DNA of 64,000 nt from a phage. Positions within the stretch are counted from its first letter, which is position 1. Each line of letters opens with the position of its first letter. The notes under the pieces are model-generated. The model had not been told where the DNA came from and did not search any database. It saw only the letters and a list, made by a program, of their open reading frames with translations. Positions 3,962 through 37,700 of this stretch are shown here, piece after piece. Both the position numbers and the translations under genes were made by a program. The DNA lies in the sequence record PV805638.1; one strand, written 5' to 3'.

Positions 3962-3995
3962 TTAGTAATTCCATTAACTTTAGGAGAGTAAGTAA

Positions 3996-5048
3996 ATGGC
4001 GAGCATTGACTCCTTGACTGTATGTAATACACGTCAAGCCCGTAACTTTATTATCCGTGCCTTGCAAGCAGGTAACGTACCGTTCCTGACTTCATCACCG
4101 GGTATGGGTAAGTCTGCAATTATTCGTTCTATTGCAGAAGAATTTGGTATGAAGCTGATTGACCATCGTTTGTCTACTTCTGCCCCGGAAGACTTATCTG
4201 GTCTACCATTCCGTAATGGTGACCGTGCAGAGTTTATCCCTTTCGCTGACTTATTCCCTATCGAGGGTGACGAAGTACCAGAAGGTTATAATGGCTGGCT
4301 CCTGTTCCTTGATGAGTTCAACTCAGCTAAAAAGGAAGTAGTAGCTGCTGCATACAAACTGATTCTAGACCGTATGACCGGACAGAAAAAACTTCACCCT
4401 AATGTGATGATTATCTGTGCCGGTAACAAAGCCACTGACCGAGCCATAGTTAACCCGCTGGGTACTGCAATGCAGTCCCGTGTTGTCCACTTCGAAATGG
4501 AACTCGACTTCGACATCTTTGTTGAAGACGTAATGATTCCTCAAGAATGGGATGAGCGTCTGGTTGCATTCTTACATGCTAACCCTGGTTATCTGCATGA
4601 CTTCGACCCTGCCCACAAGAACAAAACATTCTGTTGCCCTCGTACCTGGGACTTTGTTAACAAAGACCTCAAGAACCGACCAGAAGGTGCTTTGCCTGAT
4701 GAAGATTCTATCTACTATGCTGGACACGTTACTGCCGGTAAAGCTACAGAGTTTGTTCAGTTCACTCAGGTATACAATCGTATGATTACGATTGAGAAGG
4801 TAGTCAAAGACCCATTAGGCTGTGCACTACCGGAAGATAATAACCTGTGTTGGGCTACTGTTAACCATCTGGCTAACAAAACTACTGAAGATAACTTCGC
4901 TGATGTTCTTCAGTACATTGAACGCTTTAAAACGTTCACCCATAAGATTCTGTACTTCCGTACAGTAGGCAAAGCATTACCAGAAATTCAGGCTACCCCT
5001 GAATGGCGTAAGGCTGCTGCCAATATCTCTCGTTACATTCACGGATAA
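3996..5048 (+). CDS. MoxR-like AAA+ ATPase
   Basis: Walker A 'SPGMGKSAII' and Walker B 'LLFLDEFNSA'. Confidence 0.7.
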   Translation: MASIDSLTVCNTRQARNFIIRALQAGNVPFLTSSPGMGKSAIIRSIAEEFGMKLIDHRLSTSAPEDLSGLPFRNGDRAEFIPFADLFPIEGDEVPEGYNGWLLFLDEFNSAKKEVVAAAYKLILDRMTGQKKLHPNVMIICAGNKATDRAIVNPLGTAMQSRVVHFEMELDFDIFVEDVMIPQEWDERLVAFLHANPGYLHDFDPAHKNKTFCCPRTWDFVNKDLKNRPEGALPDEDSIYYAGHVTAGKATEFVQFTQVYNRMITIEKVVKDPLGCALPEDNNLCWATVNHLANKTTEDNFADVLQYIERFKTFTHKILYFRTVGKALPEIQATPEWRKAAANISRYIHG

Positions 5049-15734: not shown

Positions 15735-17044
15735 ATGTTTTCCAAACCTACCAAAGCCCCATTGAACCAGGGGCAAGAAGCGGTTGCGAAGGAGTTCTTC
15801 GACTTCCTGCTCGACCCTAATGCCACAGAGTTCGGAATCAGTGGACCTGGGGGGACTGGTAAGACATTCCTGATGTCGCACCTAATTGATGACACTATGC
15901 CTGCGTATATGGAAACCTGTTCTCTGATGGGAACCAAGCCTCTGTATAACGAAGTTGTCATGACTGCGACCACGAACAAAGCTGCTGAAGTTCTGGCTCA
16001 AGCTACTGGGCGTCCAACGTCTACCTATCACTCCTTCCAGGGACTGATTGTTAAGAATGACTTTAAGACTGGTGAGGCTAATGTCGTACCGTCTAAGTCA
16101 TTCTCTATTAAGAAGAACAAAATCATCTTCGTAGACGAAGCATCCATGATTGACCGTCAGTTACTTAGGTATGCTCGTGAAGGTACTCACCAGTGCAAAC
16201 TGGTATTCGTAGGCGATGCTTCTCAGCTTCTACCTGTTAAAGAGAGTAAGTCTCCAGTGTACGCAGGTAATATCCCAACACACTATCTGACTGAACAGAT
16301 GCGTACCGATTCACCAGACTCAAAGCGTTGCATCAGCAATTGCGTGATACGGTGGAAGGTAAGACAGGCTTCCTGCCTATTAAATGTATTCCAGGCATTA
16401 TTGACTGGGTGCAAGGGGAAGAGATGGAGAAACTGGTTCTCAGTCACTTCACTCAGCCTACCAATAGCCGTATTGTTGCTTACACCAATGACCAGGTTAT
16501 TAATTACAATAACTACATTCGTGAAGCTAATGGCTACGTAGGTGAATACTCCATTGGTGAACAACTAGTTTCTAACTCAGCTGTTCGCTTGGGCGGGGAA
16601 GACCGTCTGTCTATTGAGCAGGACGTAAAACTCATCGACCAGGATAGTAGTACTCGAATGATTAAGGTTACAGGTGACCTGGAACTGGAAGTCCGTGATA
16701 GTACTCTAGACCTTGGTTATGGTGGTATTGTTAGTGAAGTACCAATTCCTACCGACCCAGACTACTTCAACCGTTTGGTTAAGTGGTTAGGTAAAGAGAA
16801 GAACTGGGAACCTTACTTCCGTCTTAAAGAAACTATTCCAGACCTGCGTGCTACTCATGCATGTACTGTTCATAAATCACAAGGCTCTACTTACGACACA
16901 ATCTTCATTGATGCAGATGACCTCTCAAGCTGTCGCCAACCTGATATGGTTGCCCGTCTGCTTTACGTCGCTGTGTCTCGTGCCCGTAAGCGAGTAGTGT
17001 TCTATGGCAATCTTGCCAGTAAGTACGGTGGCCTAACTTTCTAA
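15735..17044 (+). CDS. Dda/RecD-like SF1 helicase, interrupted by a 1-nt frameshift near 16320-16325
   Basis: Walker A 'GPGGTGKTFLM', Walker B 'IIFVDEASMI' and 'VGDASQLLPV' in frame 0; 'CTVHKSQGSTYDTIFID' and 'VAVSRARKRV' in the overlapping ORF 16328-17044. Frames meet at the A-run 'tcaaagcg'. Confidence 0.6.
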
Positions 17045-20174: not shown

Positions 20175-20476
20175 CTAAAAGTACTAAAGAAACCGTCGTC
20201 AAAAAATATCATTGGATGGTGGCAGCACAGGTAATCTTCCAGCTTCCTAAAGCCGATGATGGTTCCCTACTTACCATGAACACAATGCTGCTCACTGACG
20301 AACCTCATGTGACTTATAAAGATTTGGCCCGTGTCAATCACTCCCTGAAGATTAGTCTGGACCAGCGTTTCGACACCTCAGTTGACCTGAAAGACATTGT
20401 TTATCTGTCTATTAACAATCTGGGTCTGATGTCTGAACCAGAGTTCCAGGCAAACATGATTCCCAAGGGGGAATAA
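20171..20476 (+). CDS. Hypothetical protein
   Basis: ATGA overlap with the polymerase stop. Confidence 0.35.
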   Translation: MTKSTKETVVKKYHWMVAAQVIFQLPKADDGSLLTMNTMLLTDEPHVTYKDLARVNHSLKISLDQRFDTSVDLKDIVYLSINNLGLMSEPEFQANMIPKGE

Positions 20477-20760
20477 TGACTAAGCTCTCCGGTGGTCTTA
20501 ATAACTACTATGTAGTTTTAATTAAAAATCCCCAACGGAAAGAGCAAGAGCCATATCAAGCAGAGTGTGAGGATATTATCCAAGCACTGGGCATGACCTT
20601 CGATGAAGGTTGTGCCTTTAAAGCTCTATGGCGAAATGCTGCTGCCCGTATGGGTAATGGTAAACCAGGTAACTCTTCGGTGTACGACTCAGAGAAGATT
20701 GTGCATTATGCCAATCGAATATTGAAAAAGGCTTACAATGAAAGTAACCAACAACCATGA
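20476..20760 (+). CDS. Hypothetical protein
   Basis: 94-aa ORF, coupled start. Confidence 0.3.
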   Translation: MTKLSGGLNNYYVVLIKNPQRKEQEPYQAECEDIIQALGMTFDEGCAFKALWRNAAARMGNGKPGNSSVYDSEKIVHYANRILKKAYNESNQQP

Positions 20761-21718
20761 TGTCTCACTAGCTCTGGCTGTATGGCTATTGCATGATGAG
20801 TATGATTATGTAGACAATCCTAAGTACCTGTCTGCTACTACATTGCTTAAGCCTATTAAGCAAATCGTCATGAAGCATCGTGTAGATTTCAGTGACCAGT
20901 CCATTGATGTTATGGATTTTGTTTCCACATCAATGGGTACTGGCTTACATGATTCTATCGAGAAAGCCTGGAAGCTGGGTCATAAGACTGCATTGAAGAA
21001 GCTGGGTTATCCTCAGCGAGTAATTGATGCAGTAGTCATTAACCCAACCAAAGAAGACTTTGCTGCTAACCCTGACCTTATCCCAATCTACATTGAACAA
21101 CGTGGAACCAAGCAGGTTAAGGGATGGACTATTGGTGGTAAATTCGACATCGTAACAGAAGGTCTGTTGCAAGACTTCAAGTCTACCTCAACCTATTCCT
21201 GGGTTGCTGGTTCCCGTGATGATGAACACAAGATGCAAGGCAGCTTGTACCGTTGGATTCACAACGACATCATTACTGAGGATGTAATTCGTATTAACTA
21301 CATCTTCACCGACTTCATGAAACACATGGCTAACAGCAATCCGAACTATCCTGCTAATCGTATTATGCATAAGGATATTCCGTTACTGTCTGTCGAGAAG
21401 ACTGAGCGTTGGGTGGAAGAGAAGATTCACTTAATCGAAAAGTACTGGGATGCACCTGAAGAGGAAATCCCTGAATGTACTGACGAGGAGTTGTGGCGAA
21501 CAGAGCCACAGTTCAAATACTTCTCTGATGCTTCTAAGGTAGATGTACCTGGAGCCAGAAGTACCAAAAACTTTGGCGATATGGCATCTGCCCGTATCTT
21601 CATGACTGAAAAAGGTGGCAAGGGTGCTATCAAGGTTGTGGAGGGGCAGGTTAAACGCTGTTTATATTGCCCTGTCGCATCCATTTGCAAACAAAAAGAG
21701 AGATATTTCCCATCATGA
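20738..21718 (+). CDS. PD-(D/E)xK nuclease with C-terminal Cys cluster (Cas4/RecB-like)
   Basis: 'GKFDIV...LLQDFK' nuclease-like core and C-terminal 'C...CLYCPVASIC' (CxxCx5C) typical of Fe-S nucleases. Confidence 0.45.
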   Translation: MKVTNNHDVSLALAVWLLHDEYDYVDNPKYLSATTLLKPIKQIVMKHRVDFSDQSIDVMDFVSTSMGTGLHDSIEKAWKLGHKTALKKLGYPQRVIDAVVINPTKEDFAANPDLIPIYIEQRGTKQVKGWTIGGKFDIVTEGLLQDFKSTSTYSWVAGSRDDEHKMQGSLYRWIHNDIITEDVIRINYIFTDFMKHMANSNPNYPANRIMHKDIPLLSVEKTERWVEEKIHLIEKYWDAPEEEIPECTDEELWRTEPQFKYFSDASKVDVPGARSTKNFGDMASARIFMTEKGGKGAIKVVEGQVKRCLYCPVASICKQKERYFPS

Positions 21719-23868
21719 GTATTGACCTTACCGGAGTAGTGCATCATCAGGCGATTGAAGAAATCGTAGATGTGCTCTGCAATAAAACCCAGAATAACGA
21801 CCGGGGATTCTTCCGTGTCGAAGTAGCCTACTTCTTGGCTAAAATGGCATCCTGCATGGGTGCAACCATCGTAACTAAAGACCGTGGTGACCTGCCGGTA
21901 AACATCTACGCTATGGCGTTGGCTACATCTGGTTTCGGTAAAGGTCACTCGGTAAATATCATTGAAGACGGGTTCATGACTGGCTTCCGTAAACGTTTTA
22001 TGGAAGACACCATGCCCGTCATTGCAAATGACCGTTTATGGAAGATTGCTAACGAACGTGCTGCTCGTCAGGGTACGGACCAGAATGATGAGTTCGATAA
22101 AGTTGAGGCAGAGTATAAGCGTGCTGGGGCATTCCCATTCACATTCGACTCTGGTACAGCACCTGCTGTAAAACAGCTTCGTCACAAGCTGCTTATGGCT
22201 GGTTGTGGTGCTATTAACTTACAAATTGATGAGATTGGTTCCAACCTCATTGCCAACGTTGAAGTTCTTAACCTGTTCCTTGAGTTGTATGACCAGGGGA
22301 AAGTAAAACAGAAGTTAACCAAGAACACTGCTGAAAGTATTCGTGGTGAAGAACTGGATGGTAAAACTCCTGCTAACCTGCTGCTGTTCGGTACTCCGAG
22401 TAAGCTGCTGGATGGTGGTCAGACCGAAGACCAGTTCTATGATTTCCTCGATACAGGGTATGCACGTCGTTGTCTATTTGCCATTGGGCACTTAGATAAA
22501 CGAGCACATGCAACGATGACTCCGGAAGAAATCTACCATAACCTGATTAAGCAGGATAACGTTCAGTCTCTTGGTAAGTGGGCCAACCACTTCCATAGTC
22601 TGGCTGACCCAAACCTGTTTGGCTTTAAGATGATTGTGGAAGATGCAGTGGGTATTGCTCTGATTGCTTACAAAATTGATTGTGAGAAACAAGCAGAGGC
22701 TATGGCTGACCACGAAGAAATTCGTAAGGCTGAAATCTCCCATCGTTACTTCAAGGCTCTTAAACTGGCAGGTGCATTGGCGTTTGTTGACCAGAGTTCA
22801 TTCATTGAGATGTCTCACCTTAAACAAGCAATCCTGCTCGTAGAAGAATCTGGGGCAGCATTCCAGGGTATTCTCAATCGTGAGAAAGCCTATGTGAAGC
22901 TGGCTAAGTACATTGCCTCCGTAGGTAAAGAGGTTACTCATGCTGACTTGCTGGAGTCGTTACCATTCTATAAGAGTGGTAATGCAGCTCGTAATGAGAT
23001 GATGACTCTTGCTACAGCATGGGGTTACAAACAGCACATCATTATTAAGAAGACCTTCAATGAAGGTATTGAGTTCTTCCGTGGGGAGACTCTGAAAGAG
23101 ACTGACACCAATGAGATGATAGTGGCATATAGTGATAGCTTTGCTTATGACTATGTTGGTGAACGTGTACCGTTTGACCAGCTACATGTATTAACCCAAG
23201 CTCCCGGTATGCACTGGGTAAACCATCACATGAAGAATGGGCATCGTTCTGAAGAGAACGTTATTCCAGGATTTAACATGATTGTTATTGACTGTGATGG
23301 TGGAGTACCACTGCATACGTGCCATGAACTGATGAAGGAATATAAGTTCATGACCTATACCACTAAGCGTCATACCGATGAAGAGAACCGTTTCCGTTTG
23401 ATTATTCCAATGAACTATGAGTTACACCTCGACACTGAGGAATACAAAGAGTTCATGAATAACGTTATGGCTTGGCTACCATTCGAAACGGATGAGTCTG
23501 CTAACCAACGAGCTAAGAAGTGGATGTCCTGTGAGACTGGTTCCTATCATTACAACCTTGATGCGAATCTGTTGGATGTACGTGACTTTATTCCTCGTAC
23601 CAGTAAGAACGAGCAGTTCCAGAACCAGATGAAGGAAGTTCAGTCGTTGGATAATCTGGAGCGTTGGTTCGCTGGTCGTATTGCCTCCGGTAATCGTAAT
23701 AATCAAATGATTAAATACGCACTGGCATTAGTAGACAGTGGTTGGGACTTTGCTCAGGTACAGCAAGCCGTCTACTCATTCAATAAGAAACTGGCTAATC
23801 CATTACCAGATGATGAATTGAATTCAACCGTAATGGTCACCGTGGCTAAACGCTTCGCTGGCAAGTAA
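21715..23868 (+). CDS. Putative DNA primase (AEP/prim-pol-like)
   Basis: 'MIVIDCDGG' hhhDxD-type motif; ATGA overlap with the upstream stop; position between polymerase and SSB. Confidence 0.45.
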   Translation: MSIDLTGVVHHQAIEEIVDVLCNKTQNNDRGFFRVEVAYFLAKMASCMGATIVTKDRGDLPVNIYAMALATSGFGKGHSVNIIEDGFMTGFRKRFMEDTMPVIANDRLWKIANERAARQGTDQNDEFDKVEAEYKRAGAFPFTFDSGTAPAVKQLRHKLLMAGCGAINLQIDEIGSNLIANVEVLNLFLELYDQGKVKQKLTKNTAESIRGEELDGKTPANLLLFGTPSKLLDGGQTEDQFYDFLDTGYARRCLFAIGHLDKRAHATMTPEEIYHNLIKQDNVQSLGKWANHFHSLADPNLFGFKMIVEDAVGIALIAYKIDCEKQAEAMADHEEIRKAEISHRYFKALKLAGALAFVDQSSFIEMSHLKQAILLVEESGAAFQGILNREKAYVKLAKYIASVGKEVTHADLLESLPFYKSGNAARNEMMTLATAWGYKQHIIIKKTFNEGIEFFRGETLKETDTNEMIVAYSDSFAYDYVGERVPFDQLHVLTQAPGMHWVNHHMKNGHRSEENVIPGFNMIVIDCDGGVPLHTCHELMKEYKFMTYTTKRHTDEENRFRLIIPMNYELHLDTEEYKEFMNNVMAWLPFETDESANQRAKKWMSCETGSYHYNLDANLLDVRDFIPRTSKNEQFQNQMKEVQSLDNLERWFAGRIASGNRNNQMIKYALALVDSGWDFAQVQQAVYSFNKKLANPLPDDELNSTVMVTVAKRFAGK

Positions 23869-23924: not shown

Positions 23925-24677
23925 ATGTCCGAAGAAATCTCCAATGATATGAACACTCAGCTAATTCTGATTGCAGGATTCTCAGCGAGTGGTAAATCAG
24001 CATCATTGCGTAATATCCGGAACCAGGATCGCTGGTTGTATCTGAATACGGAAGCAGGTAAGCGTCTACCTTTCCGTAATAAGTTCAACACCTACAACAT
24101 TGAAGACCCATATCAGATTTGGGAAGCATTTGATGTTGCATCTCCGGGTGGTGAAATGGCAGACGATGTTGATGGTATCATTATCGACTCTGCTACCTTC
24201 ATGATGGACATGCTGGAATCCCAGTATGTATTGCCATCTGCTAATACCCAGAAAGCCTGGGGAGACTTTGCACAGTTCTTTAAAATACTGCTGCAACAAA
24301 AAGTCGTTAAGTTTGGTAAGCCAGTAATCATTACTGCTCATGCCAAAGATGAACTCGATGAAGCTGCTGGTGTGATGAAAACATTCATCCCGGTTAAGGG
24401 TTCACTGAAGAACAATGGCCTTGAGGCTTACTTCTCTACAGTGGTTTATGCAGAACGCGTAGACATTAAAGAACTGGAGAAGTATGGCAACAAGATGCTT
24501 GATATTACGGAAGAAGAACGTGACTTAGGCTATAAGCACGTATTCCAGACTCGCCCAACCAAGAAGTCTGTTGGTAAACGACTTCGCTCACCAATGGGTA
24601 TGTTTGATAAGTCGCAGACTTACATTGATAATGATGCCCAAAAACTCTTAGACCATCTGGCTGAATACTACGCTTAA
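23925..24677 (+). CDS. P-loop ATPase (Sak4/AAA_24-like recombination ATPase candidate)
   Basis: Walker A 'GFSASGKSAS' and Walker B 'GIIIDSATF'. Confidence 0.5.
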   Translation: MSEEISNDMNTQLILIAGFSASGKSASLRNIRNQDRWLYLNTEAGKRLPFRNKFNTYNIEDPYQIWEAFDVASPGGEMADDVDGIIIDSATFMMDMLESQYVLPSANTQKAWGDFAQFFKILLQQKVVKFGKPVIITAHAKDELDEAAGVMKTFIPVKGSLKNNGLEAYFSTVVYAERVDIKELEKYGNKMLDITEEERDLGYKHVFQTRPTKKSVGKRLRSPMGMFDKSQTYIDNDAQKLLDHLAEYYA

Positions 24678-24717: not shown

Positions 24718-25521
24718 ATGGCACTGTTCGGTAACTTGAAAGAAAAGACCAAAAACGTTGAAGCTGCAAAAGACTCCCTTGGTGGTGGTGGCTTCGGTGC
24801 AAAAGAATCCGATATCTACACTGGTACTGTAAAAGTAGCTTATGTAGGTAAAGCTGACTCTGGTGCAGACTGGATGCAGTTAATCATCGAAAACCTGAAA
24901 GGTTCTGACGGCAATGATGCTGGTGAGTTCCGTGCTCAGGTGTACTTTACTTCTGGTAATGCTAAAGGCAATAAGCCAACTTACGAGAAGAACGGTAAAG
25001 AGTACTTCTTGCCTGGTTACACTGTCATTAATGACATGATGCTTATGGCTACTGGTTGTGAACTGCCAGATGCAGACTTCGAAGAGAAGATTGTTAAAGT
25101 CTATGACTTCGATCTGAAAGCTGAAACCAATAAGTCTGTCATGGTTCCAGTTGACCTGGTTGGTCAGACTGTTACCTTCGCTCTGGAAAAGGTTCTGGAA
25201 GCTAAGCAGGTTAAAGGTGACAACGGTTACGTTGACTCCGGTGAAACTCGTGAAGTAAACGAGATTCAGAAAGTGTTTCATCCGGAACTGCTGGTCACAG
25301 TCGTCGAGGCTCAGGAAGCAGAGAAGGCTGAGAAAGAACTGACCCCAGAACTGGCTGTATTCTATGGAGCATGGCTGGAAAAGAACAAAGGTAAAACCCG
25401 TGATAAGACCAAGGGTTCTACTGGTGGTAATGGTAAAGGTGGCTTGCCTCCTAAACCAGGTGCAGGTGCTGGCACAGGTACTACTCCAGCTGGTGGTAAA
25501 TCTCTGTTCGGTAAGCGTTAA
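24718..25521 (+). CDS. Putative single-stranded DNA-binding protein (N4 gp45-like)
   Basis: 267 aa with Gly-rich C-terminal tail, at the position and size of the N4 SSB; no diagnostic motif read. Confidence 0.4.
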   Translation: MALFGNLKEKTKNVEAAKDSLGGGGFGAKESDIYTGTVKVAYVGKADSGADWMQLIIENLKGSDGNDAGEFRAQVYFTSGNAKGNKPTYEKNGKEYFLPGYTVINDMMLMATGCELPDADFEEKIVKVYDFDLKAETNKSVMVPVDLVGQTVTFALEKVLEAKQVKGDNGYVDSGETREVNEIQKVFHPELLVTVVEAQEAEKAEKELTPELAVFYGAWLEKNKGKTRDKTKGSTGGNGKGGLPPKPGAGAGTGTTPAGGKSLFGKR

Positions 25522-26075
25522 TGAAAATCCCAATTGTCGGTGCAGACATTAGTCTCCGCAATTGGGGATTAGCTCGTGGGATGCTGGACATTGAGTCCGG
25601 CGTCTTCGAGCAGGTCGAACTTAAACTGGTTCAAACTGAAGTTGACCACAACAAACAAGTTCGAACCAACTCCAAAGATATACAAGCTGCCCATGATTTG
25701 TTTCTTGGTTGTGAAGAATGGTTACGGTCTGCTAAAGCAGTATTCGTAGAAGTACCAGTAGGCTCTCAGTCTGCTAATGGTATGAAGTCTTATGGTGTAT
25801 GCGTAGGATTAATCGGTGCATTCCGCGCATTGGGTTGCCCAATCTTTGAAGTATCCCCAATTGAAAACAAACTTGCACTGGTCGGTGATAAAACCGCATC
25901 CAAAGACACGATGATTCGTGCTGCTCATGCCATCTATCCCGAAGCCAACTGGCTCACGGATAGTAAAGGTAAACTTCTGAATAAGAACGAGCACTTAGCT
26001 GATGCAATCGGTGCAATCCACGCTGGGGTAAATCTTCCAGCTTTCCAGAATCTCATTAAATTAATAAAGGCATAA
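25521..26075 (+). CDS. RuvC-like Holliday junction resolvase
   Basis: 'IVGADISLRNWGLA' N-terminal RuvC-like motif and C-terminal 'HLADAIGAIHAG'. Confidence 0.5.
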   Translation: MKIPIVGADISLRNWGLARGMLDIESGVFEQVELKLVQTEVDHNKQVRTNSKDIQAAHDLFLGCEEWLRSAKAVFVEVPVGSQSANGMKSYGVCVGLIGAFRALGCPIFEVSPIENKLALVGDKTASKDTMIRAAHAIYPEANWLTDSKGKLLNKNEHLADAIGAIHAGVNLPAFQNLIKLIKA

Positions 26076-27294: not shown

Positions 27295-27565
27295 TCTCTC
27301 GCTGGTTCGAGTCCAGATGCCGGAACCAATTCGTGAGAACTCTTATCTTGGCTACCGGGAAAGGAGTGAAAAATATTCGTAAACTACTCCCCAATTAGGT
27401 TCAACTCCTAAACCAGGGTAAGTGTTCTCACAAATTGGAAGAATTAAGACGGGTCTGGTGAAGTAGATGGGGTTCGATTCCCTCCGGTGGAGTAATCCAC
27501 TAGCGTGCTTGGTGCACGAATAAGACTTAATACTGGTGGTTCGATTCCATCCCCCGTTACCCGAA
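27295..27565 (+). other. Cluster of tRNA-like T-arm/acceptor elements; canonical cloverleafs not confirmed
   Basis: GGTTCGAGTCC (27304-27314, followed by ...ACCA), GGTTCAACTCC (27398), GGTTCGATTCC (27471 and 27538). Matching 5' acceptor strands were not found by hand. Confidence 0.3.
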
Positions 27566-28439: not shown

Positions 28440-28670
28440 ATGACGCAAGTATCTATTACCTCTGTTGTTCGTGAAGCCATTCTCAATAATACCGTCCGTA
28501 CGTATTCATTCGATGAAATCGCAGAGAAGCTAGGAGTAACTCGTTACGTAGCTAAAAAACTCTACTTCACATTCCTATGGTTCCCTACGGAAGAAACATT
28601 ACGGAAGATTAAAGAGACTGGTAAATTTCCAAGTGAAGGACGTAAGCCTAAAATGTGGAAAACACCCTAA
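28440..28670 (+). CDS. Small HTH-like protein
   Basis: 'SFDEIAEKLGVTRYVAKK' HTH-like segment; convergent with the virion RNAP gene. Confidence 0.35.
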   Translation: MTQVSITSVVREAILNNTVRTYSFDEIAEKLGVTRYVAKKLYFTFLWFPTEETLRKIKETGKFPSEGRKPKMWKTP

Positions 28671-28682
28671 CTTCTAAAAGCA

Positions 28683-28714
28683 AAGCCCCTCTTTTGAGGG
28701 GCTTTCTTATTTTA
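28683..28714. terminator. Bidirectional terminator between convergent genes
   Basis: aagcccctc-tttt-gaggggctt hairpin with T-rich tract on the plus side and a U-rich tract in the minus-strand transcript. Confidence 0.6.
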
Positions 28715-31700
28715 GTTTACTAAGTTCATCCAAGGGTTTAGGTTGTGAGCACGAAGCCCCTGACCAAAGCCCCATGAGTAATCCAGACTACCCTTAGCAG
28801 CAATACTAAAGATGTTGTCCTGAATAGGTAAGCCAACGTTACCAAACATGGTAGGAGTTGGAGCCAGCATCGCCATTGCTGCATGTACTGGGTTATTGCG
28901 AATCATGGACACTGCAACCTTAGCTGAACGAATCTTAAAGTTGTAGAACCACATTAAACCAACGCTTTCCATATACCCACGGAAACGGCCCGGCAGACGG
29001 TCATAGTTAATGAACTCTTCGGTTACACGTCCCAGTGCTTCTTCACGAGTCTTACCTTTACGCTGGGTCAATTCATCATAGATGATTGCTTTAGCGATAA
29101 AGTCAGAGTACTCAACCGTCTTCTGGATACCCTGGAACAGAGCAGTATCCTTAGTGATAAGTGCATAACGACCAGCAGCACGTACAGACTTAGGTAACTT
29201 ATCCGCCAGCTTTTCCATGTATTCGTGAAGTTTACCTTCAGTAATCAGGATGTCATCACGACCAATACCAGCATCTGCAATTGAAGAGAACTCACCAGCT
29301 TCTATCAGAGGCCAGATACTCATACGCTTATGGCTATCAGTAATGGACTGAATCTCAGCCTTAAGTTTACGAATCTGGTTCGGGTTAGTAGCTGCACGTA
29401 ATTCTGCTTCTGCATCTACCTGACGTAAACGAGATTTAAGGTACTGGTTAATCTCAGCAGTCTTCCGTGGAATGCTCTTAGCAATGTTCTTAACCGGTAC
29501 ACCACGAGCAACCATCTGGTAAAGGTTAGCCAAAAAGTTAACAACAGGTACGACTACTGACTTAACTACAATCAGAGTCTTAGCATCTTTAACTAAGTTT
29601 TGAACCAGGTTCTCACCACCCATTAAGTACTTATAGGCACGGTTACCGGCTAAACCCAGAATAGCTTTTTTAAAGGTATTAAGCGTTTCCGGGGACCAAC
29701 GAGAATTACCAGACCAAGCATCACCAATCGAAGCTGCACGATAGCCAAGTGCATCATTCAGCATGTCCCGACGTACCCACAGTTCACCCTCACCAAACAG
29801 TTTTTCTGCTTTCCGTCGAGTTTCGCTGTTCATCAGCTTAAGAGCATCAGCAGTTACTGGGTCCAGTTTAGAACCAAAAAGGTTCACGTACTGGGACTTA
29901 TTAGCAGCAGACATCTTAATGTCTTCCTTGTACATGCTATACAGGTTCTCAATCAGCATATCGTTGAAACGCTGAGCCTTAGCTTCTTCCACCTGACGAC
30001 CACGCCATACACCAATTGCACGGGCAAGATGATTTTCACCTTCAATATGCTTCAGCATATTAGGGTTAATTGATTCCTCATAAGCAACCACATCACCTTT
30101 AGCATTATATACGGGCAATAGTGGTTCATTACCACGTTCACCACGAGCTAGTGCTTTAGCGATACGGTCTACAGAAGGCTTGTCAGTAATACGACCAGCT
30201 ACCATGGAACCCATCGTAAAGCCTGTACCGAGGTCTACACCACCAGCAGTATTACGAACGTTCTGTAGAATACCTTGTGAGAACGGAGCCTGTGCCTGTA
30301 CTGGGGCAAAGTAGTAGCTACGTGCCAGACCTCGGTTAGCAGAGCTACCTTGATAAGTACTCAGACGTACATAGGACTTCTCTATCAAATCACCAAACTG
30401 GCTATCTTCAGCAACAACCAGACTAACACCCTGTTTAGTCTCACTAGGGATATACCCTTTGTACTGGTTCAGGGTTGCACGCATATTAGATTTGGCTTTA
30501 GCCATTTCATCTTTACGCTGCCCAACCAGGTAAGAAGTAGCAAAGTCCATTCCCTCAACTTCTGTCTGAGCCAGTGAAGATAACATCTCACGGTCGGACT
30601 TGTTCATTGCTTCCAGTGCATACAGGGTAATAAGTTTATCCAGTTGAGCTACATCTACAATAGAGCGAGTAGTCTTACGTTCACCTAACATACGAGAGAT
30701 TGCAGTAGCATTCCGCAGCAAGTTTTTACCGACTGTGCCATTAATCATGTACTGAGCCAGTTGCTTAGATTTACGGTTAATCAGAGGCCAGTTACGACCA
30801 GCTTGTTTCTGCAAATCTGCTTCCAGCTTATTCACTTCACGGTCAACAATCTTCTGGTCAGATAGCAGGTCACGGATTTCAGCCAGAGACATGGTGTCAC
30901 GCAGGACAGCTAAGTCAGTTTTACCCATACCAGTGTACATTGCTTTCCACTCATCCTTAGTCAGCTTACGGCTGAACTTAGATGCGATAGTGGTAGGCAG
31001 GTGTTCACGGAACTGCTGACGGTCAGCCTGCACCTGTGCACGAACTGCTTTAATCAAATCGTATACAGAAGCATTACTCTTAGTACGACCGGTTAAGTCA
31101 TTAACCAGGTCATGGAAAGGTTGCCATACTTTACCCTGGTTCATTGCAACCATAACGCCTTCAGCTACGTTTGCACCATTCTTCTCTGTAGCAATAGCAG
31201 CCATTAGTTGTGCAGCATGAGCAGCACCCTTAACCAATGGATTTTTGGTATTGGCTGCAACTTCACGAGCACTTTCTAAAACACGGGTAGACAGTACATC
31301 AATAGAGTCCACCAAATACTGGTTAGCACGGTCAATAGCATTACCACTAGGAGTAGCAACGGAATCATAGAATGACTGTGCATTAAGGCTAGTCTGCATG
31401 ATTGTTTGAGCCAGTGCATCCATACCTTCCTGTACGTTGGTAGCTTTAGTGTCACCTGCTACACGAGCATTCAGGCTTGCCATTGCAGCAGTACCAATGT
31501 TAGTCAGCATTGCATCGACGGTATTCCCAGATTTCTTATCTGCTTTCATAACAGGAATGTTAGCCAGTACATTACGTACCTCTTCACTTACCATTGCCAG
31601 ACCAACAAAGGTAGGCAGTATTGAAGAACGACCCTGCGCATCAAACTCAATATTGTTAGCACCCATGATGGTATCGAACTTCTGCTGTGCATAGTAACGG

Positions 31701-34700
31701 TCAGCAGGGTTAGTACTATCTGGGTCAGTCATGAATGATTCAACAGTCAGGTTCTTAGTAACGTGTGCATAGTATTCCTGTGCACGAGAAAGAGCAGCCG
31801 GACTAATAGCAGCTTCAGTAGCGAGTGCAGCAACAATGTTAGTAAAGAGACGCTGCTCCTGCATATTCATAGTGAAGCCATGAGCCTGAACATCACGGGT
31901 TACTTTAGTTGCGTGCTTTTTCGCATCAGAGAACTTACCTTCACGGATTACTTGCTGTACTGGTTCTGAACCAATGTAGTTAGTAATCAGCTTATCAAAT
32001 GTCTGTCCTAACTCTTCCAGACGGGTATTGTCACCATATGCTTTGTTATGGAACAAGGTAGTATCTTTGGCTACAGCAGCCGTAGGAGCCTGTCCACGCA
32101 TAACTACTGAAGAGTTAAACAGTAAGCCAGAGAACATATCATCTGCATTAGCAGGTGCTTTCTTGCGACCAAATACCAGACGTTTGATTGCTTCATATAC
32201 TGACTGAACCATGGCTTTCAGTGCAGTGGTCTTCTTCTGCTTACTAATTAATTCACGGTTAGTTAAGCCCCAAGCCATGTACTCATTCAGTGCAGCAGCT
32301 TTAGCCATTGCTGGTTCAATAAAGCCGTTAGACAAGTGACCATTAATGGTATTAAGTGCATCAGCATATGCTTCACGTACTGCCGGAGATTCATCCATAA
32401 CATCCAGATTACGGAACTGGTTCATCAAGTCTTCAATATTCTGGACTGCTTCATTAGGAGTACCCTCATAGTGAGCCAGTACAGATTCAAAAGTAGAAGC
32501 ATGTACTAATTCATGAACCAGAGTCTCTAGGGAAGGGGTAACTAAGTAGATGGTTTTATCATCAAAGTTAGTCCAGCCATACGCATTACCAGCTTCGGCA
32601 GCTTCAATATCTTCCGGTGCTGGACGAGTAATGTTCTTCTCAATAGCATAGGCATCCAGTTGAGCAGGAGTACCGTAAACAACTTTGTAGTCTTTAGCAG
32701 CAAGGGATTTCTGTATCTCTTTCAATACTGCTTGCTGTTCTGGAGACATCTCTTTAGCCAGCTTGGTAATAGCAGTATTAGACAATAGACGTACACCAGA
32801 CTTAAGTACACGACCAACTTGTTCCATTGCTGGCACTTCTTTAACAGGTGCTTCTTTAGTAGGTACTTCTTTCACTGGATCTGCTTTAGCAGCACGTACT
32901 GCATCACGACGCTTATTTAATTCAGCATCAAACAGTTCGTTCAGCTTAGCTACTTGCTGGTCTACAGTCAGTCCCTCAAGAGAAATTTTACCGTTGTTCA
33001 CATAAGGAGCACCTACAGCAGCCATCTGGTCAACAGTGGTCTGTACCTGGTTCATTACTTTGTGGCGAATATCCACACTTAAAGCAATGTTACGCAGGTT
33101 ACGCTCAATAAGGTTAACACCTGAATTCTTAATCATATCAATCTTATACTGCCTGTCTCCCTCAACGCGACTGATATGAGAAAGCTGTTCAAAATCTAAA
33201 GCGGAACGGGCAATGTCATCAATTGTCTTATCTGACAACTTATCAAAGTCTACATTCTTCAAGAACTCAGAGAAGGATTCATATACAGCCTTGATAGGAT
33301 TCCCCTGCCAGGAAGTGTATACAGCCTCGTTTGCTTTACGACTTGCATCAGTGATGTCACTAATACCAATGTTCATACCATCAAAGATTTTCAGGGTATT
33401 CTTCGGAGCACCTTTCATAGTAGAAAGGGTCTGCATCATCATGCCATCACCAGTACCGATGGTCATAAATGGAATACCTGCAACACCTGCTTGTGAAGGA
33501 GCATAGATGCTCATTGGCACACGCATACGGTCATCTAAGTTGGTAGCCAGTACTTGGTTAGCAACGTCAGTACTCTCACTGCCAGCAAGGTAGAAAGTCT
33601 GTGAGCCAGTCTCAATCATTGGAGCCAATGGAGATAATGATTCCTGGATTTCATTCAGTTCTTTCTGTGTTAAGAAATCACCCTTCTTCCAGGTTGGGTC
33701 TTTTTCTTTTTCTGCTAGCTTAGCCTGTACTGCTTGCTGGAACATATCCTGCAATACCAGAGACTGAATCTGAGTAGCCTTCTGCAAGTTCTCAGTAGAG
33801 TACATCAGACCTTCACCAACAGTATTACGGATACCGGTACGCATTGGCTCAACGAACAAATGGAGCATGTTCTCTTGTAAGTTCTTCAGAGCATTACCGG
33901 ATACGGTAAATTTCTGAGGGTCTAACTTACCAGTCAGAGCACCATCTACTTCCTTAATAAATAACTTACCTTTACGCTTAGCTGGAATCTTACCGGTCAG
34001 TGCTTCCATAGAAGTAAGGAAGGTATCCAGCATAGCCTGAGCATCTGCCTCAGACGCAGCCTCCTTACCAAACATTGCCATAGCCGGGGAAATGCTAGGG
34101 TCAGCAGCACGTGCTTGCAGAACGTCGCTGAAGCGTTCGTAGATGGTGTCAGTAATTGCACTGACCATCTTGCCAGCAATACCACGAGCACCAGAACCAT
34201 AGATGGTAATGGTCAGAGGGTTCTTAGCGATACCACGTTTCAGGTCCAGAGTACCATCTTCATTCAGGTTAAAGTCTTTAATGAACAGGTCCATTAACTT
34301 CTGGAGATGATTTATCTGGTTCATAACTGGAACGTTGTTACGGTAAGTAGTACGTAACTCATTCAGTGCTTGTTGCAGACCATTGGTAGATGCTTCATAC
34401 AAGTCAACATTATCGTCGATAGAACAGTGTTCGTTCATCGTTTTACCAGCGCGACCGAAGAACAGTCCACCTTTAGCAGTGTTCTTAATCCAGTCTGGGG
34501 TGAACTTACCACCAGTCATTAATACCATTGCGTTGATTGGGCCGTTGGTTACACCATCAGCTTCAACGTACAGAGGGGTAGTAAAATTAGCACGGTCATC
34601 ACTGTTCAGGTAACGGGCATATTCCATCAGAGCCATGAGAGCTACGAAGGATTTGTTATCACCCAGGGAAGACTTCAGAATATCTACTGCATCAGTAGGT

Positions 34701-37700
34701 AAGTAGCCAGACTTATCAAACTCGACCATCATATCAACAGCAGGTTTCAGATTACCTTCCAGAGCTTTGGTCAGATTTTCAGACATAGCTTCACGGGACA
34801 TTTTATGTACCTTGATGCCCAATGCCTGAGCCAGACCTAGCTGGAAGTCAGAGAACGCTTGGCTGTTTTCATTACTTAAGTCGATAGTAGAGAAGGTTGG
34901 CAAAATTGCTTCACGAACCAGCTTACTGGATTGTGGGTTATTTTTACCAAGCATCTGCATACGACCTACACGGGTCATGTTATAGCCATAGTGAATGGGA
35001 GTATCCAAACCATTCTCTTGTTCTTTTAGCTGATTAATTAAACCGAACAAGGAATCATATGCCATAGATACTGATAAGTTCTTACCTTCCAGAGATTTGG
35101 CAGTGTTTTCATTCAGCAAATCAGGATTAAGAGAACCAGCACCCATCAGTTCCAGAATGCCGTCACGCCCCAATGCTTCATAGAAGTTAACCATCGGCAT
35201 GTGTACACGGAACTCGGTAGCCTGTTCAGCTTTCAGAGCAGCTTTCTGTTCAGGGGTATTCTTAACAGCAGGGTTACGTAACTGAGTCTGAGCCACAGAA
35301 GGAATGTCATCACCAAAGTACATTTTCTCTTCTGGTTCTAAGAGGACAGCTTCCTCAATAGCAGTAGGGAATTTGTTAATGGCATCATTGTCATCCAGTT
35401 TCTCAATAGTATACAGACCAATGGTCTTATTGGAGTCTGGGTCAATCTCAGACACATCCAGCATAGACTCTTTAACTTCACCCATCTCAATGAGGGAAGA
35501 CAGAATCTCTGTAGCCATTGCCATTGGGATACCTTTTGTATAACCCAGTGGTGCATTAGGATTACGATTCAAACCCCAATAAGATTCAATCTTCTGAGCC
35601 AGTGAGTTAGTAGCTTCGACCAGAGTCTGGGCATTCTCGAACTCAGCCAGAATACCTTCTGGTAACAGAGATGCATCTACACCAGTAATAGCAGCTACGT
35701 CTTTCATGTCTTTAATGGCAGCATTCTGTGTAGCAGTCAGTCGCCATTGCAGACCAGCAAGTACAGCAGTCTCTAACAACTGGTCATTAAACTTAAAGGT
35801 GTCACCATCACGTTCAACGATATTCAGCAGTTTGCCACCTACCCAACGGTTAGCTTCAGTACCTTCTGCAAAACGCTTACCAACGTTCTTGTTAGCAAGG
35901 AACTTAGCCAGTCGTTCAGACAAAGTAGTCTTCAGAGTTTCCCCAAAGTCCATCAAGTCTTGATAACGTTCTAACACATCACCTGTAAGAGCGTTATTTT
36001 CTTTTTGAGTGAACGCTTCAAAGCGAGCAGCAGAAGACAGTGCTTGCTTAATATCAGCCAAAGGGGATTCTGAACCAATGGTACGGGACTTAGGTTCTTC
36101 CGGTAAGGTAAACGCCTTCAGGAACTGGTTCGGTGTCTTCTCATTGTTATAGACAGGGAACACTGTTTCCATTTCAGAAAGAGGTTTGCCACCTACTGTA
36201 TAATCTGCTTTCAATTGAGCCAGTGATACTTCATCTTCCTCCGCGTTGTTAGTGTTAAGACCAGAGGTATCTACACCAACCAGAATATGTGCATTATTGG
36301 CTTCAACGAAAGACTGAACAGTATTGAATTGTTCGGCAGTCAGTTTCTGATTATCGAACAGCTGTAAGGACACAAACGGGTGTTCACTGCCTTTATAGAA
36401 CATAGAGCGAATAGCACCTGTATCCAGAGACATATCACGATAACCATCATGACCAAATACATCGGACAGGCTGATATGGTCGCCATTAGAACCAACCACA
36501 GTACCATCAGCAAACAGCCATGGACTTTCTCTATGGTCACCATACTTATTAAGAGTTTCCTGTGAAATAGTATTTTCTTTCACATAGGCATCTCTTTCAG
36601 ATTCGGTAGGTTGCTCGATGGTATCCTCATTAGTGGGGGTAGCATCATCTACAACCGGGCTAGTCTTTTCAGACTTAGGTACTTTCTCTTCCTGTGCAGG
36701 TGTAACTTCTGGCTGGGAGAATGTATTACGTACATAGTTCATAAAATCATTACGTGCTTGAGAAGGAGAAGACCATACTTCCCGTGTGCTACGTAAACTA
36801 AAGATTCGACCTTCAGGAGTCATTACGTAAGGTACATTTGTTTCACCGTACTTAAATGAAGTGAGTACATCTGACTTACCAGTAACAGTGCTTTCCCCTG
36901 GAATGACAATAGTCTTACCACCAGTAGAAGGAGCAGCACGAACACCCTCAATATCCTTACCAAGAGAAATATACTCTTTACCGTTGTAATCAAAGTACTG
37001 ACCTATCTGCATATAGGTAGCTTGTTGCTTACCAGTAAACTCAGCAGTTTTCATCTCCGGGCCGTTAGGTACAGACGTACTTTCAGACTTAGGCTTAGAT
37101 ACTTTCTCTGGTTCTGACTTAGACTCTACAGTGTTAGGAGCAGTTTTATTGTTTACCACTGGTTTAGCTTTAGACTGTACAGTAGTGACTGGTTCCTGTG
37201 TTTTTACAGGTGTTTCATTAACCTGATTCACTGGTTCATTAGCCTGTTGAGACTGAGTGGCATTAAGACCACCTTGACGGAACTCTTTAACTACCTGGGC
37301 AGCTGGCTTGTTCAGACGTGAATCCAACGAGGTAACTTTCACATGAGAAACATTAAGCTCCGGGTAAGCCGTAGCAAGTGCATTAGCAATATCAGCTACG
37401 GTCTTAGCTTCCAGTGCTACTTGCTGGGCAAACTTAACAGACTTGGTATCGTAAGGATTGACACCGAGGCCAGTACGACTACGTACCCATTCACGAGTAG
37501 GTGTGAGAGCCTGATAATGAACAGACTTATTCTTATCCGCATTCCCAGAAATCAGATGCTCATTCAACGCTCCGACCTTATTCTGCATGTGCTGGGCGAA
37601 CTTCATAAAATCGCTCAGATAAGCGGAAGCCAAATCGAAGTTACCAGAGTTATACGCAGAACGAATGCGTTTCGCATGTTGCAACGCAGAGTACTGTCCT

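Follow-up and report, generated by a model that had tools for sequence, protein, structure and literature searches.

N4-like phages occur in abundance and have found use in phage therapy, and decades of work have gone into their replication. In the early N4-like genome papers, the N4 polymerase was found to have no 5'-3' exonuclease domain, and the product of gene 42 (gp42) was listed as "unknown" (PMC2784036). A 5'-3' exonuclease coded by N4 was purified in 1986 (JBC 1986;261:10736), as that work is cited in PMC8994998. Current RefSeq records and PHROG 2139 label gp42 an exonuclease; the searchable literature yielded no biochemistry for any member of the gp42 family and nothing specific on iron-sulfur (Fe-S) nucleases in the Schitoviridae.

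Phage recombination systems that pair an exonuclease with an annealase are exemplified by lambda Exo-Beta and RecE-RecT. Lambda Exo (Red-alpha) and RecE, the partners of Red-beta and RecT, are toroidal oligomers with no Cys cluster, and their sequence similarity to gp42 is undetectable. The activity of Sak4, a single-strand annealing protein with a RecA fold, is enhanced by its cognate SSB, a distant relative of the N4 SSB (PMC5928155), and pairs of an exonuclease and Sak4 have earlier been put forward as recombination systems of phages (PMC3483164). Another comparison is provided by gp75 of Burkholderia phage AH2, a DUF2800-type "Cas4 superfamily exonuclease" of siphophages, which is an Fe-S-type PD-(D/E)XK protein encoded beside SSB/annealase genes. 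Like gp42, it possesses a CxxCx5C triad; unlike gp42, it has the canonical N-terminal Cys (..WLTC-PG..) and a long C-terminal extension after the triad.

The window analysed here is the whole 64,000-nt stretch of phage DNA from record PV805638.1, in which an ORF on the + strand (20738..21718; ATG start, 326 aa, predicted mass 37.6 kDa) encodes a gp42-type exonuclease, predicted to be a Cas4/RecB-like PD-(D/E)XK nuclease with a four-Cys cluster. Judged by its sequence, this ORF is homologous to N4 gp42 and belongs to a G7C-like coliphage (Gamaleyavirus, Schitoviridae). Specifically, the 10 kb surrounding the gene match Escherichia phage vB_EcoP_G7C and related members of that genus at 96-97% nucleotide identity, and the protein is 95-99% identical to G7C-like products labelled "exonuclease" and ~71% identical to the homologues in two other N4-like coliphages (enquatroviruses). 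The protein has full-length homologues in 472 phage records, almost all from N4-like phages, and its residues 1-325 match PHROG 2139 (profile positions 2-324 of 330; E 7.3e-152). N4 gp42 and its Schitoviridae counterparts in PHROG 2139 are direct orthologues, equal in length, situated between gp41 and gp43 and, in N4 and G7C, sharing a 4-nt overlap with the primase gene. Public records already list the gene as an exonuclease, and it is, in that respect, largely ordinary. What is new here is a non-canonical ligand arrangement across PHROG 2139, the breadth of the family's association with annealases, and the candidacy of gp42 as the classical N4 exonuclease.

Conservation was assessed in an alignment of 145 sequences, including 144 representatives at 32-52% identity to the query; the underlying whole-library HMM search had returned 3,994 cluster representatives, of which 462 reached E <= 1e-30. 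The hallmarks of the nuclease superfamily stand out clearly in this alignment. Motif I, G67-x3-H71-x3-E75 (20936..20962, + strand), has invariant G67 and H71 and a 97% conserved E75, while motif II, G-G-K-F-D137 (21134..21148, +), contains the invariant G134 and the invariant, putatively metal-binding Asp, D137. Motif III, D146-F-K148 (21173..21181, +), corresponds to the (D/E)xK catalytic pair and motif IV, Q167-G-S-L-Y171 (21236..21250, +), to the QxxxY of the RecB family; both residues of each pair are invariant. E120 is likewise invariant among the representatives (n=144). In 79 shorter relatives from viral metagenomes, referred to here as short-type, the equivalent of motif III is D-Y-K, invariant in 79/79.

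Profile searches point in the same direction at lower strength. Pfam PDDEXK_1 (PF12705) aligns with gp42 at 16.8 bits (E 0.0068), under its 22-bit gathering threshold, with the alignment reaching the profile end (247/247) at residue 318. The same profile matches 54/145 family members at E < 0.01 (best E 3.7e-7), and the relative from Synechococcus phage MinM2 scores 34.6 bits, above the threshold. PHROG 1706, described as "CRISPR/Cas system associated", matches gp42 at E 7e-12. When the PDB was queried with gp42 alone or with profiles of 18 and 145 sequences, the outcome was noise or nothing, and searches of NCBIfam and PADLOC gave no matches to gp42. Since PDDEXK_1 falls below threshold and the PDB searches gave no significant match, the link between gp42 and Cas4 is drawn from structure prediction together with the weak profile matches.

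The AlphaFold model used for that purpose was built from the 145-sequence alignment and has a pLDDT of 97.4; it supersedes an earlier model from an 18-sequence alignment (pLDDT 76.5), in which the active-site strand, 139-158, fell below 50. The predicted structure adopts the PD-(D/E)XK restriction-endonuclease-like fold, and the iron-sulfur members of the superfamily occupy the top of its list of structural matches. Cas4 SSO0001 (PDB 4ic1) scores highest, at 13.1 with 184/202 residues aligned, followed by human EXO5 (11.4), a Cas4-Cas1 fusion (10.4), Dna2 (9.6), AdnAB (9.5), MGME1 (9.4), RecE (8.8), AddB (7.5) and Lambda Exo (7.2). Cas4-like viral nucleases in the BFVD cover only part of the model (TMq ~0.4). 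Relative to Cas4/AddB-type enzymes, gp42 carries a helical insert of ~35 residues after motif I (~80-115), which the short relatives do not have, and its gene is linked neither to cas genes nor to a helicase domain. On the strength of the model and the conserved motifs, gp42 is most likely a metal-dependent PD-(D/E)XK nuclease of the Cas4/AddB/Dna2/EXO5 group, with an active site formed by D137 and D146-x-K148. The first-pass annotation had read a PD-(D/E)xK-like core and a Cas4/RecB-like nuclease from the letters of the gene, a reading to be abandoned if no nuclease fold could be found and if the cysteines were not conserved in homologues. The core is borne out by the invariance of D137, D146, K148, Q167 and Y171, the reading itself is supported by the best structural matches of the model (Cas4 and EXO5), the nuclease fold is present in the model, and the cysteines are conserved.

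These cysteines are exactly four in number, C247, C308, C311 and C317, and among the columns at least 90% conserved in the 145-sequence alignment, Cys occurs only at these four positions. The last three form the triad C308-LY-C311-PVASI-C317 (21659..21688, +), a C308-x2-C311-x5-C317 arrangement that is 99% conserved and corresponds to the C-terminal Fe-S ligand motif of Cas4, AddB and PDDEXK_1 proteins; the Cys cluster noticed at first pass is confirmed, and a CxxCx5C pattern arises by chance in just 0.034% of 100,000 shuffles of the gp42 protein. Cys247 (21476..21478, +) lies in the motif P-E-C-T-D-E-E-L-W, is invariant in 145 N4-like and 79 short-type sequences, and is proposed as the fourth cluster ligand. 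It sits after the nuclease core and ~60 residues ahead of the triad. The same Cys arrangement is found in Leptospira phage LE4, Pelagibacter phage Baldr, Synechococcus phage MinM2 and the contig vir555. Among the 79 metagenomic relatives, conservation of the four Cys columns is complete (100%), with two to four residues separating the first two Cys of the triad (CxxC, Cx3C, Cx4C).

In canonical Fe-S nucleases the order is different. Cas4 SSO0001, AddB, Dna2 and EXO5 share the Cys order of canonical Cas4, an "iron staple" in which the first Cys is N-terminal to the nuclease core. For example, in three CRISPR Cas4 sequences the first ligand is at about residue 16 in a YC(H/P/K)R motif, ~21-23 residues before GxxxH, and the other three Cys form a C-terminal CxxCx5C. 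In gp42, which has the triad, there is no Cys before residue 247, and in the alignment of 79 sequences no column upstream of the DxK motif reaches 50% Cys. By motif comparison, the place of the canonical first Cys is taken in gp42 by S32-A-T-T-L-L-K38-P39 (20831..20854, +), a motif with no Cys. Here S32, T34 and L36 are at least 92% conserved in the 145-sequence alignment, and K38 and P39 are at least 90% conserved or invariant among 18 closer homologues. Short-type relatives instead have P-P-R or S-P-R at this place (...L-I-S-P-P-R-I-Q-L-L, ...D-S-P-R...), always 26 residues before GxxxH. Thus, compared with Cas4 (SSO0001, 4ic1; PF01930), PDDEXK_1/AddB-type proteins, EXO5, Dna2 and AdnB, gp42 would have K-P in the place of the first Cys and a ligand, C247, located after the core. 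This proposed replacement of the canonical Cys by K38-P39 is argued from motif order and spacing because the hhalign alignments were non-significant: against AH2 gp75 the triad alone was aligned (probability 6.5%), and against the three-sequence CRISPR Cas4 alignment the probability was 1.2%, with an unreliable alignment.

Between Cys247 and the triad, the model places a beta-beta-alpha-beta insert of ~55 residues (~250-305; 21485..21652, +; pLDDT 97.4), with predicted strands at 258-262, 277-279 and 297-301, a predicted helix at 282-291, and W253, Y261, A285 and G296 as conserved residues. Most likely, C247, C308, C311 and C317 together hold an iron-sulfur cluster that would stabilise the C-terminal part of gp42. 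If so, we infer that one ligand has been relocated and that the cluster would close a loop around the inserted module instead of stapling the N-terminus to the C-terminus.

Turning to gene context, the order gp41-gp42-gp43-gp44-gp45 is common to the window, N4, G7C and LUZ7, and is found in pVa5 with one extra gene. In the window, gp42 is followed by the genes for the gp43 DNA primase (717 aa; 21715..23868, +; PHROG 2135 from residue 3, E = 0; Pfam PriCT_1, 2.6e-7) and for gp44, a Sak4-like (RecA-fold) ssDNA annealing protein (23925..24677, +; PHROG 124, E 8e-50; Pfam AAA_24, 6e-11), which is the proposed recombination partner. These, in turn, are followed by the genes for gp45, an N4-type SSB (24718..25521, +; PHROG 743, E 4e-88), and gp46, a RuvC-like Holliday junction resolvase (25521..26075, +; PHROG 159, E 1e-41). 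As is expected of the exonuclease of a two-component phage recombinase, gp42 therefore lies in one block with an annealase, with the gp44 gene 2.2 kb downstream on the same strand; in N4-like phages, however, the primase gene comes between the two, a point against the pairing. In the regions of G7C examined (1-34,945), gp42 is the sole gene annotated as an exonuclease.

Outside the Schitoviridae, the association with annealases persists while the annealases themselves change. For example, in Leptospira phage LE4 a single small gene lies between the nuclease and a RecT-like annealase, in Synechococcus phage MinM2 an Erf gene is two genes from the nuclease, and in vir555 the nuclease gene overlaps that of an Erf-like annealase by 8 nt. 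The record host of vir555 is Methanomicrobiales, and with that predicted host this single contig indicates a possible reach of the family into archaeal viruses. A broader sample came from 79 IMG/VR viral metagenomic contigs, gathered with a profile of the short type and with three genes on each side clustered. A Sak-like annealase (PHROG 659, 4e-50) occurs no more than three genes downstream in 58/79 of these loci, which do not amount to 79 independent observations because their nucleases are related (median 43% identity). Other neighbours are a RusA-like resolvase upstream (49/79; PHROG 140, 2.3e-10), a small SSB (40/79; PHROG 18154, 4.6e-5) and a primase-helicase (30/79; PHROG 239, 1.1e-99), the representative gene of the last being on the opposite strand. 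Four annealase families, Sak4, Sak, Erf and RecT, are thus paired with gp42-type nucleases. Because these families are unrelated, the association is taken to mark gp42-type nucleases as the exonuclease part of an exo/annealase recombinase, as in lambda Exo-Beta and RecE-RecT.

Taken as a whole, the fold, the motifs, the conservation of the cysteines and the gene context suggest that gp42 is probably an exonuclease of the Cas4/AddB group and Fe-S type that resects dsDNA ends 5'-to-3', providing the exonuclease half of a phage recombination system composed of an exonuclease and an annealase. Cas4 acts 5'-3' on DNA ends (PMC5704561), and 5'-3' resection with 3' tails is proposed for gp42 because its relatives Cas4, EXO5 and Dna2 have this polarity on DNA ends. 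In the proposed scheme, gp42 would resect double-stranded ends in the 5'-to-3' direction, leaving 3' single-stranded tails for the gp45 SSB to coat; the Sak4-like gp44 would then anneal the coated tails, and the RuvC-like gp46 would resolve the resulting junctions. Such a system may serve recombination-dependent replication and concatemer formation. In addition, gp42 is a natural candidate for the 5'-3' exonuclease purified in 1986. With gp42 as the resection nuclease of a Sak4/SSB/RuvC module, a testable picture of recombination intermediates and concatemers in N4-like phages is at hand.

The junction between gp42 and the primase gene deserves separate attention. An ATGA overlap of the gp42 stop and the gp43 start had been noted at first pass and holds up at 21715..21718 (+), where gp42 ends ...CCA TCA TGA, the primase begins ATG AGT... 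from 21715, and the ORF that follows is the PHROG 2135 primase (E = 0). A TTG-extended ORF from 21667 was considered and set aside as an artefact of choosing the longest ORF, the primase starting at 21715. Annotations of N4 (27314-27317) and G7C (28549-28552) show the identical 4-nt overlap. No good Shine-Dalgarno sequence exists 5-10 nt upstream of the gp43 start; the only candidate is AGAGAGA, farther off at approximately -13 to -19, and termination-reinitiation is plausible for gp43 because a good Shine-Dalgarno is missing at the usual distance. The overlap probably couples translation of gp43 to that of gp42. Overlaps are frequent in this part of the genome, with 4 nt shared by gp39/gp40, 1 nt by gp40/gp41, 23 nt by gp41/gp42 and 4 nt by gp42/gp43. 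In LUZ7, the gp42/gp43 junction is a 9-nt gap and the primase gene has its own GGAG; in pVa5, another gene lies between nuclease and primase. The gp42/gp43 overlap is therefore a property of a compact gene block and not the sign of a specific functional pairing. A dedicated nuclease-primase complex signalled by the overlap was also considered and was rejected, as the overlap is not conserved beyond the Enquatrovirinae (LUZ7, pVa5).

The same junction bears on the main alternative to recombination, namely that gp42 acts at the replication fork with the primase and polymerase, removing 5' flaps or RNA primers in the manner of Dna2 or FEN during lagging-strand maturation, with the overlap keeping its stoichiometry to the primase. 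The placement of gp42 within the gp37-gp45 replication block, overlapping the primase start, would suit such a role, as would the presence among the best structural matches of Dna2 and EXO5, which are 5'-flap or 5'-ssDNA nucleases, and the missing 5'-3' exonuclease domain of the N4-type polymerase. We nevertheless regard it as unlikely, though worth keeping in view: adjacency to the primase is not conserved (the LUZ7 gap with its own Shine-Dalgarno and the intervening gene of pVa5), the conserved neighbour outside the Schitoviridae is an annealase (RecT, Erf, or Sak in 58/79) as against a primase/helicase in 30/79, and N4 replication takes the 5'-3' exonuclease for the primer or flap step from host Pol I. 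It is possible that gp42 serves both at the fork and in recombination, as these roles are not mutually exclusive, with the conserved context favouring recombination. A nuclease expressed together with replication genes might, alternatively, degrade or scavenge the host chromosome, for nucleotide supply or host shut-off. This is very improbable, since nothing specific among the results speaks for it, the family is consistently found inside modules of exonuclease, annealase, SSB and resolvase, which are a signature of recombination, and its nearest structural relatives are end-processing enzymes. Thus, among the roles suggested at first pass, recombination is strengthened by the conserved annealase context, fork processing keeps a minor place and degradation of host DNA finds no specific support.

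The kinship with Cas4 raises the further question of whether gp42 manipulates spacer acquisition by the host. The type I-E and I-F CRISPR systems of E. coli are not known to use Cas4. There is a precedent in Campylobacter phages, for whose Cas4-like proteins such manipulation has been proposed (PMC4283603), and both the PHROG 1706 match and the top structural match, a CRISPR Cas4, could be read in this way. Against these stand the lack of any PADLOC defence or Cas model matching gp42, the failure of Pfam Cas_Cas4 (PF01930) to match gp42 (E 0.093 in one distant relative), and a context of phage replication genes from which cas1 and cas2 are absent, so that a CRISPR-related function is the least probable of the roles considered. 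Finally, the four cysteines might coordinate zinc or be purely structural instead of holding an iron-sulfur cluster, which would leave the nuclease role as it is. Four invariant Cys fit a Zn(Cys)4 site, the first ligand does not sit where proven Fe-S nucleases have it, and the first spacing of the triad varies in distant relatives; the Cx2-4Cx5C triad, however, occupies the C-terminal place that it also has in Cas4, AddB, Dna2 and EXO5, all of them Fe-S nucleases and top structural matches, making zinc a distinctly unlikely choice.

Returning to an exonuclease of the Fe-S type acting in recombination, it is tempting to suggest, with somewhat less than even confidence, that PHROG 2139 is a distinct variant of the Fe-S nucleases. 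The ancestral N-terminal Cys would have been lost and a new ligand recruited from beyond the core, such that the cluster clamps a small inserted beta-beta-alpha-beta module that may bind DNA. The variant would act as a generic resection partner of annealases from four or more unrelated families (Sak4, Sak/Rad52-like, Erf and RecT), in bacterial phages and possibly in viruses of archaea, and may also be the 5'-3' exonuclease that N4 replication requires in vitro. The displaced Cys ligand offers a small natural experiment on the role of the Fe-S cluster in nucleases of the Cas4/AddB/Dna2 type. None of this overturns current understanding, and specialists will be little surprised. As a minor point of comparison with G7C, gp41 of the window is shorter, and the HNH homing endonuclease that lies between gp41 and gp42 in G7C has no counterpart at that place in the window.

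Two boundaries of gp42, the Cas4/RecB-like exonuclease gene, merit closer description. At its 3' end, the longest-ORF listing begins the gp43 primase with a TTG at 21667, inside gp42, a start that is ruled out both by alignment to the phage protein family PHROG 2135 and by the annotations of N4 and G7C. The alignment begins at residue 3 of the product read from the ATG at 21715; judged from this sequence comparison, that ATG is the true primase start, and region 21667-21714 is an upstream extension introduced by the listing.

At its 5' end, gp42 shares a 23-nt overlap with gp41 (20476-20760), which encodes only 94 aa in the window; its counterparts in G7C and N4 have 156 and 202 aa, respectively. 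The short product matches positions 229-312 of 316 in PHROG 7063 and positions 331-420 of 423 in PHROG 4521, in each case the C-terminal end of a phage 3'-phosphatase/5'-polynucleotide kinase family. Based on these matches, gp41 in the window appears to be a stand-alone piece or domain of what is a larger protein in related phages. In G7C, an HNH homing endonuclease gene, gp41.1 (4519-5016 of the G7C locus L002), lies between gp41 and gp42, and a second such gene is located after gp47. Comparison with G7C found no HNH homing endonuclease insert at the window's gp41/gp42 junction (about 20760), and homing-endonuclease content therefore varies among near-identical phages.

Outside this group, gp42-type nucleases of a short kind, about 290 aa in length, form a recurrent module in 30-70 kb IMG/VR viral contigs (L012-L091). 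On the upstream side, a RusA-like resolvase is present at 49 of the 79 loci and a primase-helicase at 30, with representative genes of both on the strand opposite the nuclease; downstream follow a Sak-like annealase (58/79) and a small SSB (40/79). Two more small genes are conserved in the neighbourhood, one encoding about 96 aa at 16 loci and the other about 104 aa at 10 loci; neither had a PHROG match. In Vibrio phage pVa5, the gp42-like exonuclease (3986-4969 of locus L005) carries the GenBank/RefSeq note “structural protein”, a label that may have originated in virion proteomics; if it is real, this nuclease would be packaged.

Elsewhere in the window, the gp37 gene for a RecD/Dda-like helicase (15735-17044) is broken near 16317, which leaves two ORFs (15735-16541 and 16328-17044) that overlap but are read in different frames. 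When aligned with G7C gp37, the window shows a single 1-nt deletion (CACCAG-ACTC versus CACCGGAACTC in G7C), and the break region spans 241 nt in the window versus 242 nt in all 12 of the relatives listed. The deletion stems from an error in sequencing or assembly, or else it is a private inactivating mutation of the PV805638.1 genome. Finally, a single 3,759-aa ORF occupies 28712-39991 on the minus strand; given its fitting size and position, we presume it to be a candidate for the N4-type virion RNA polymerase (gp50).
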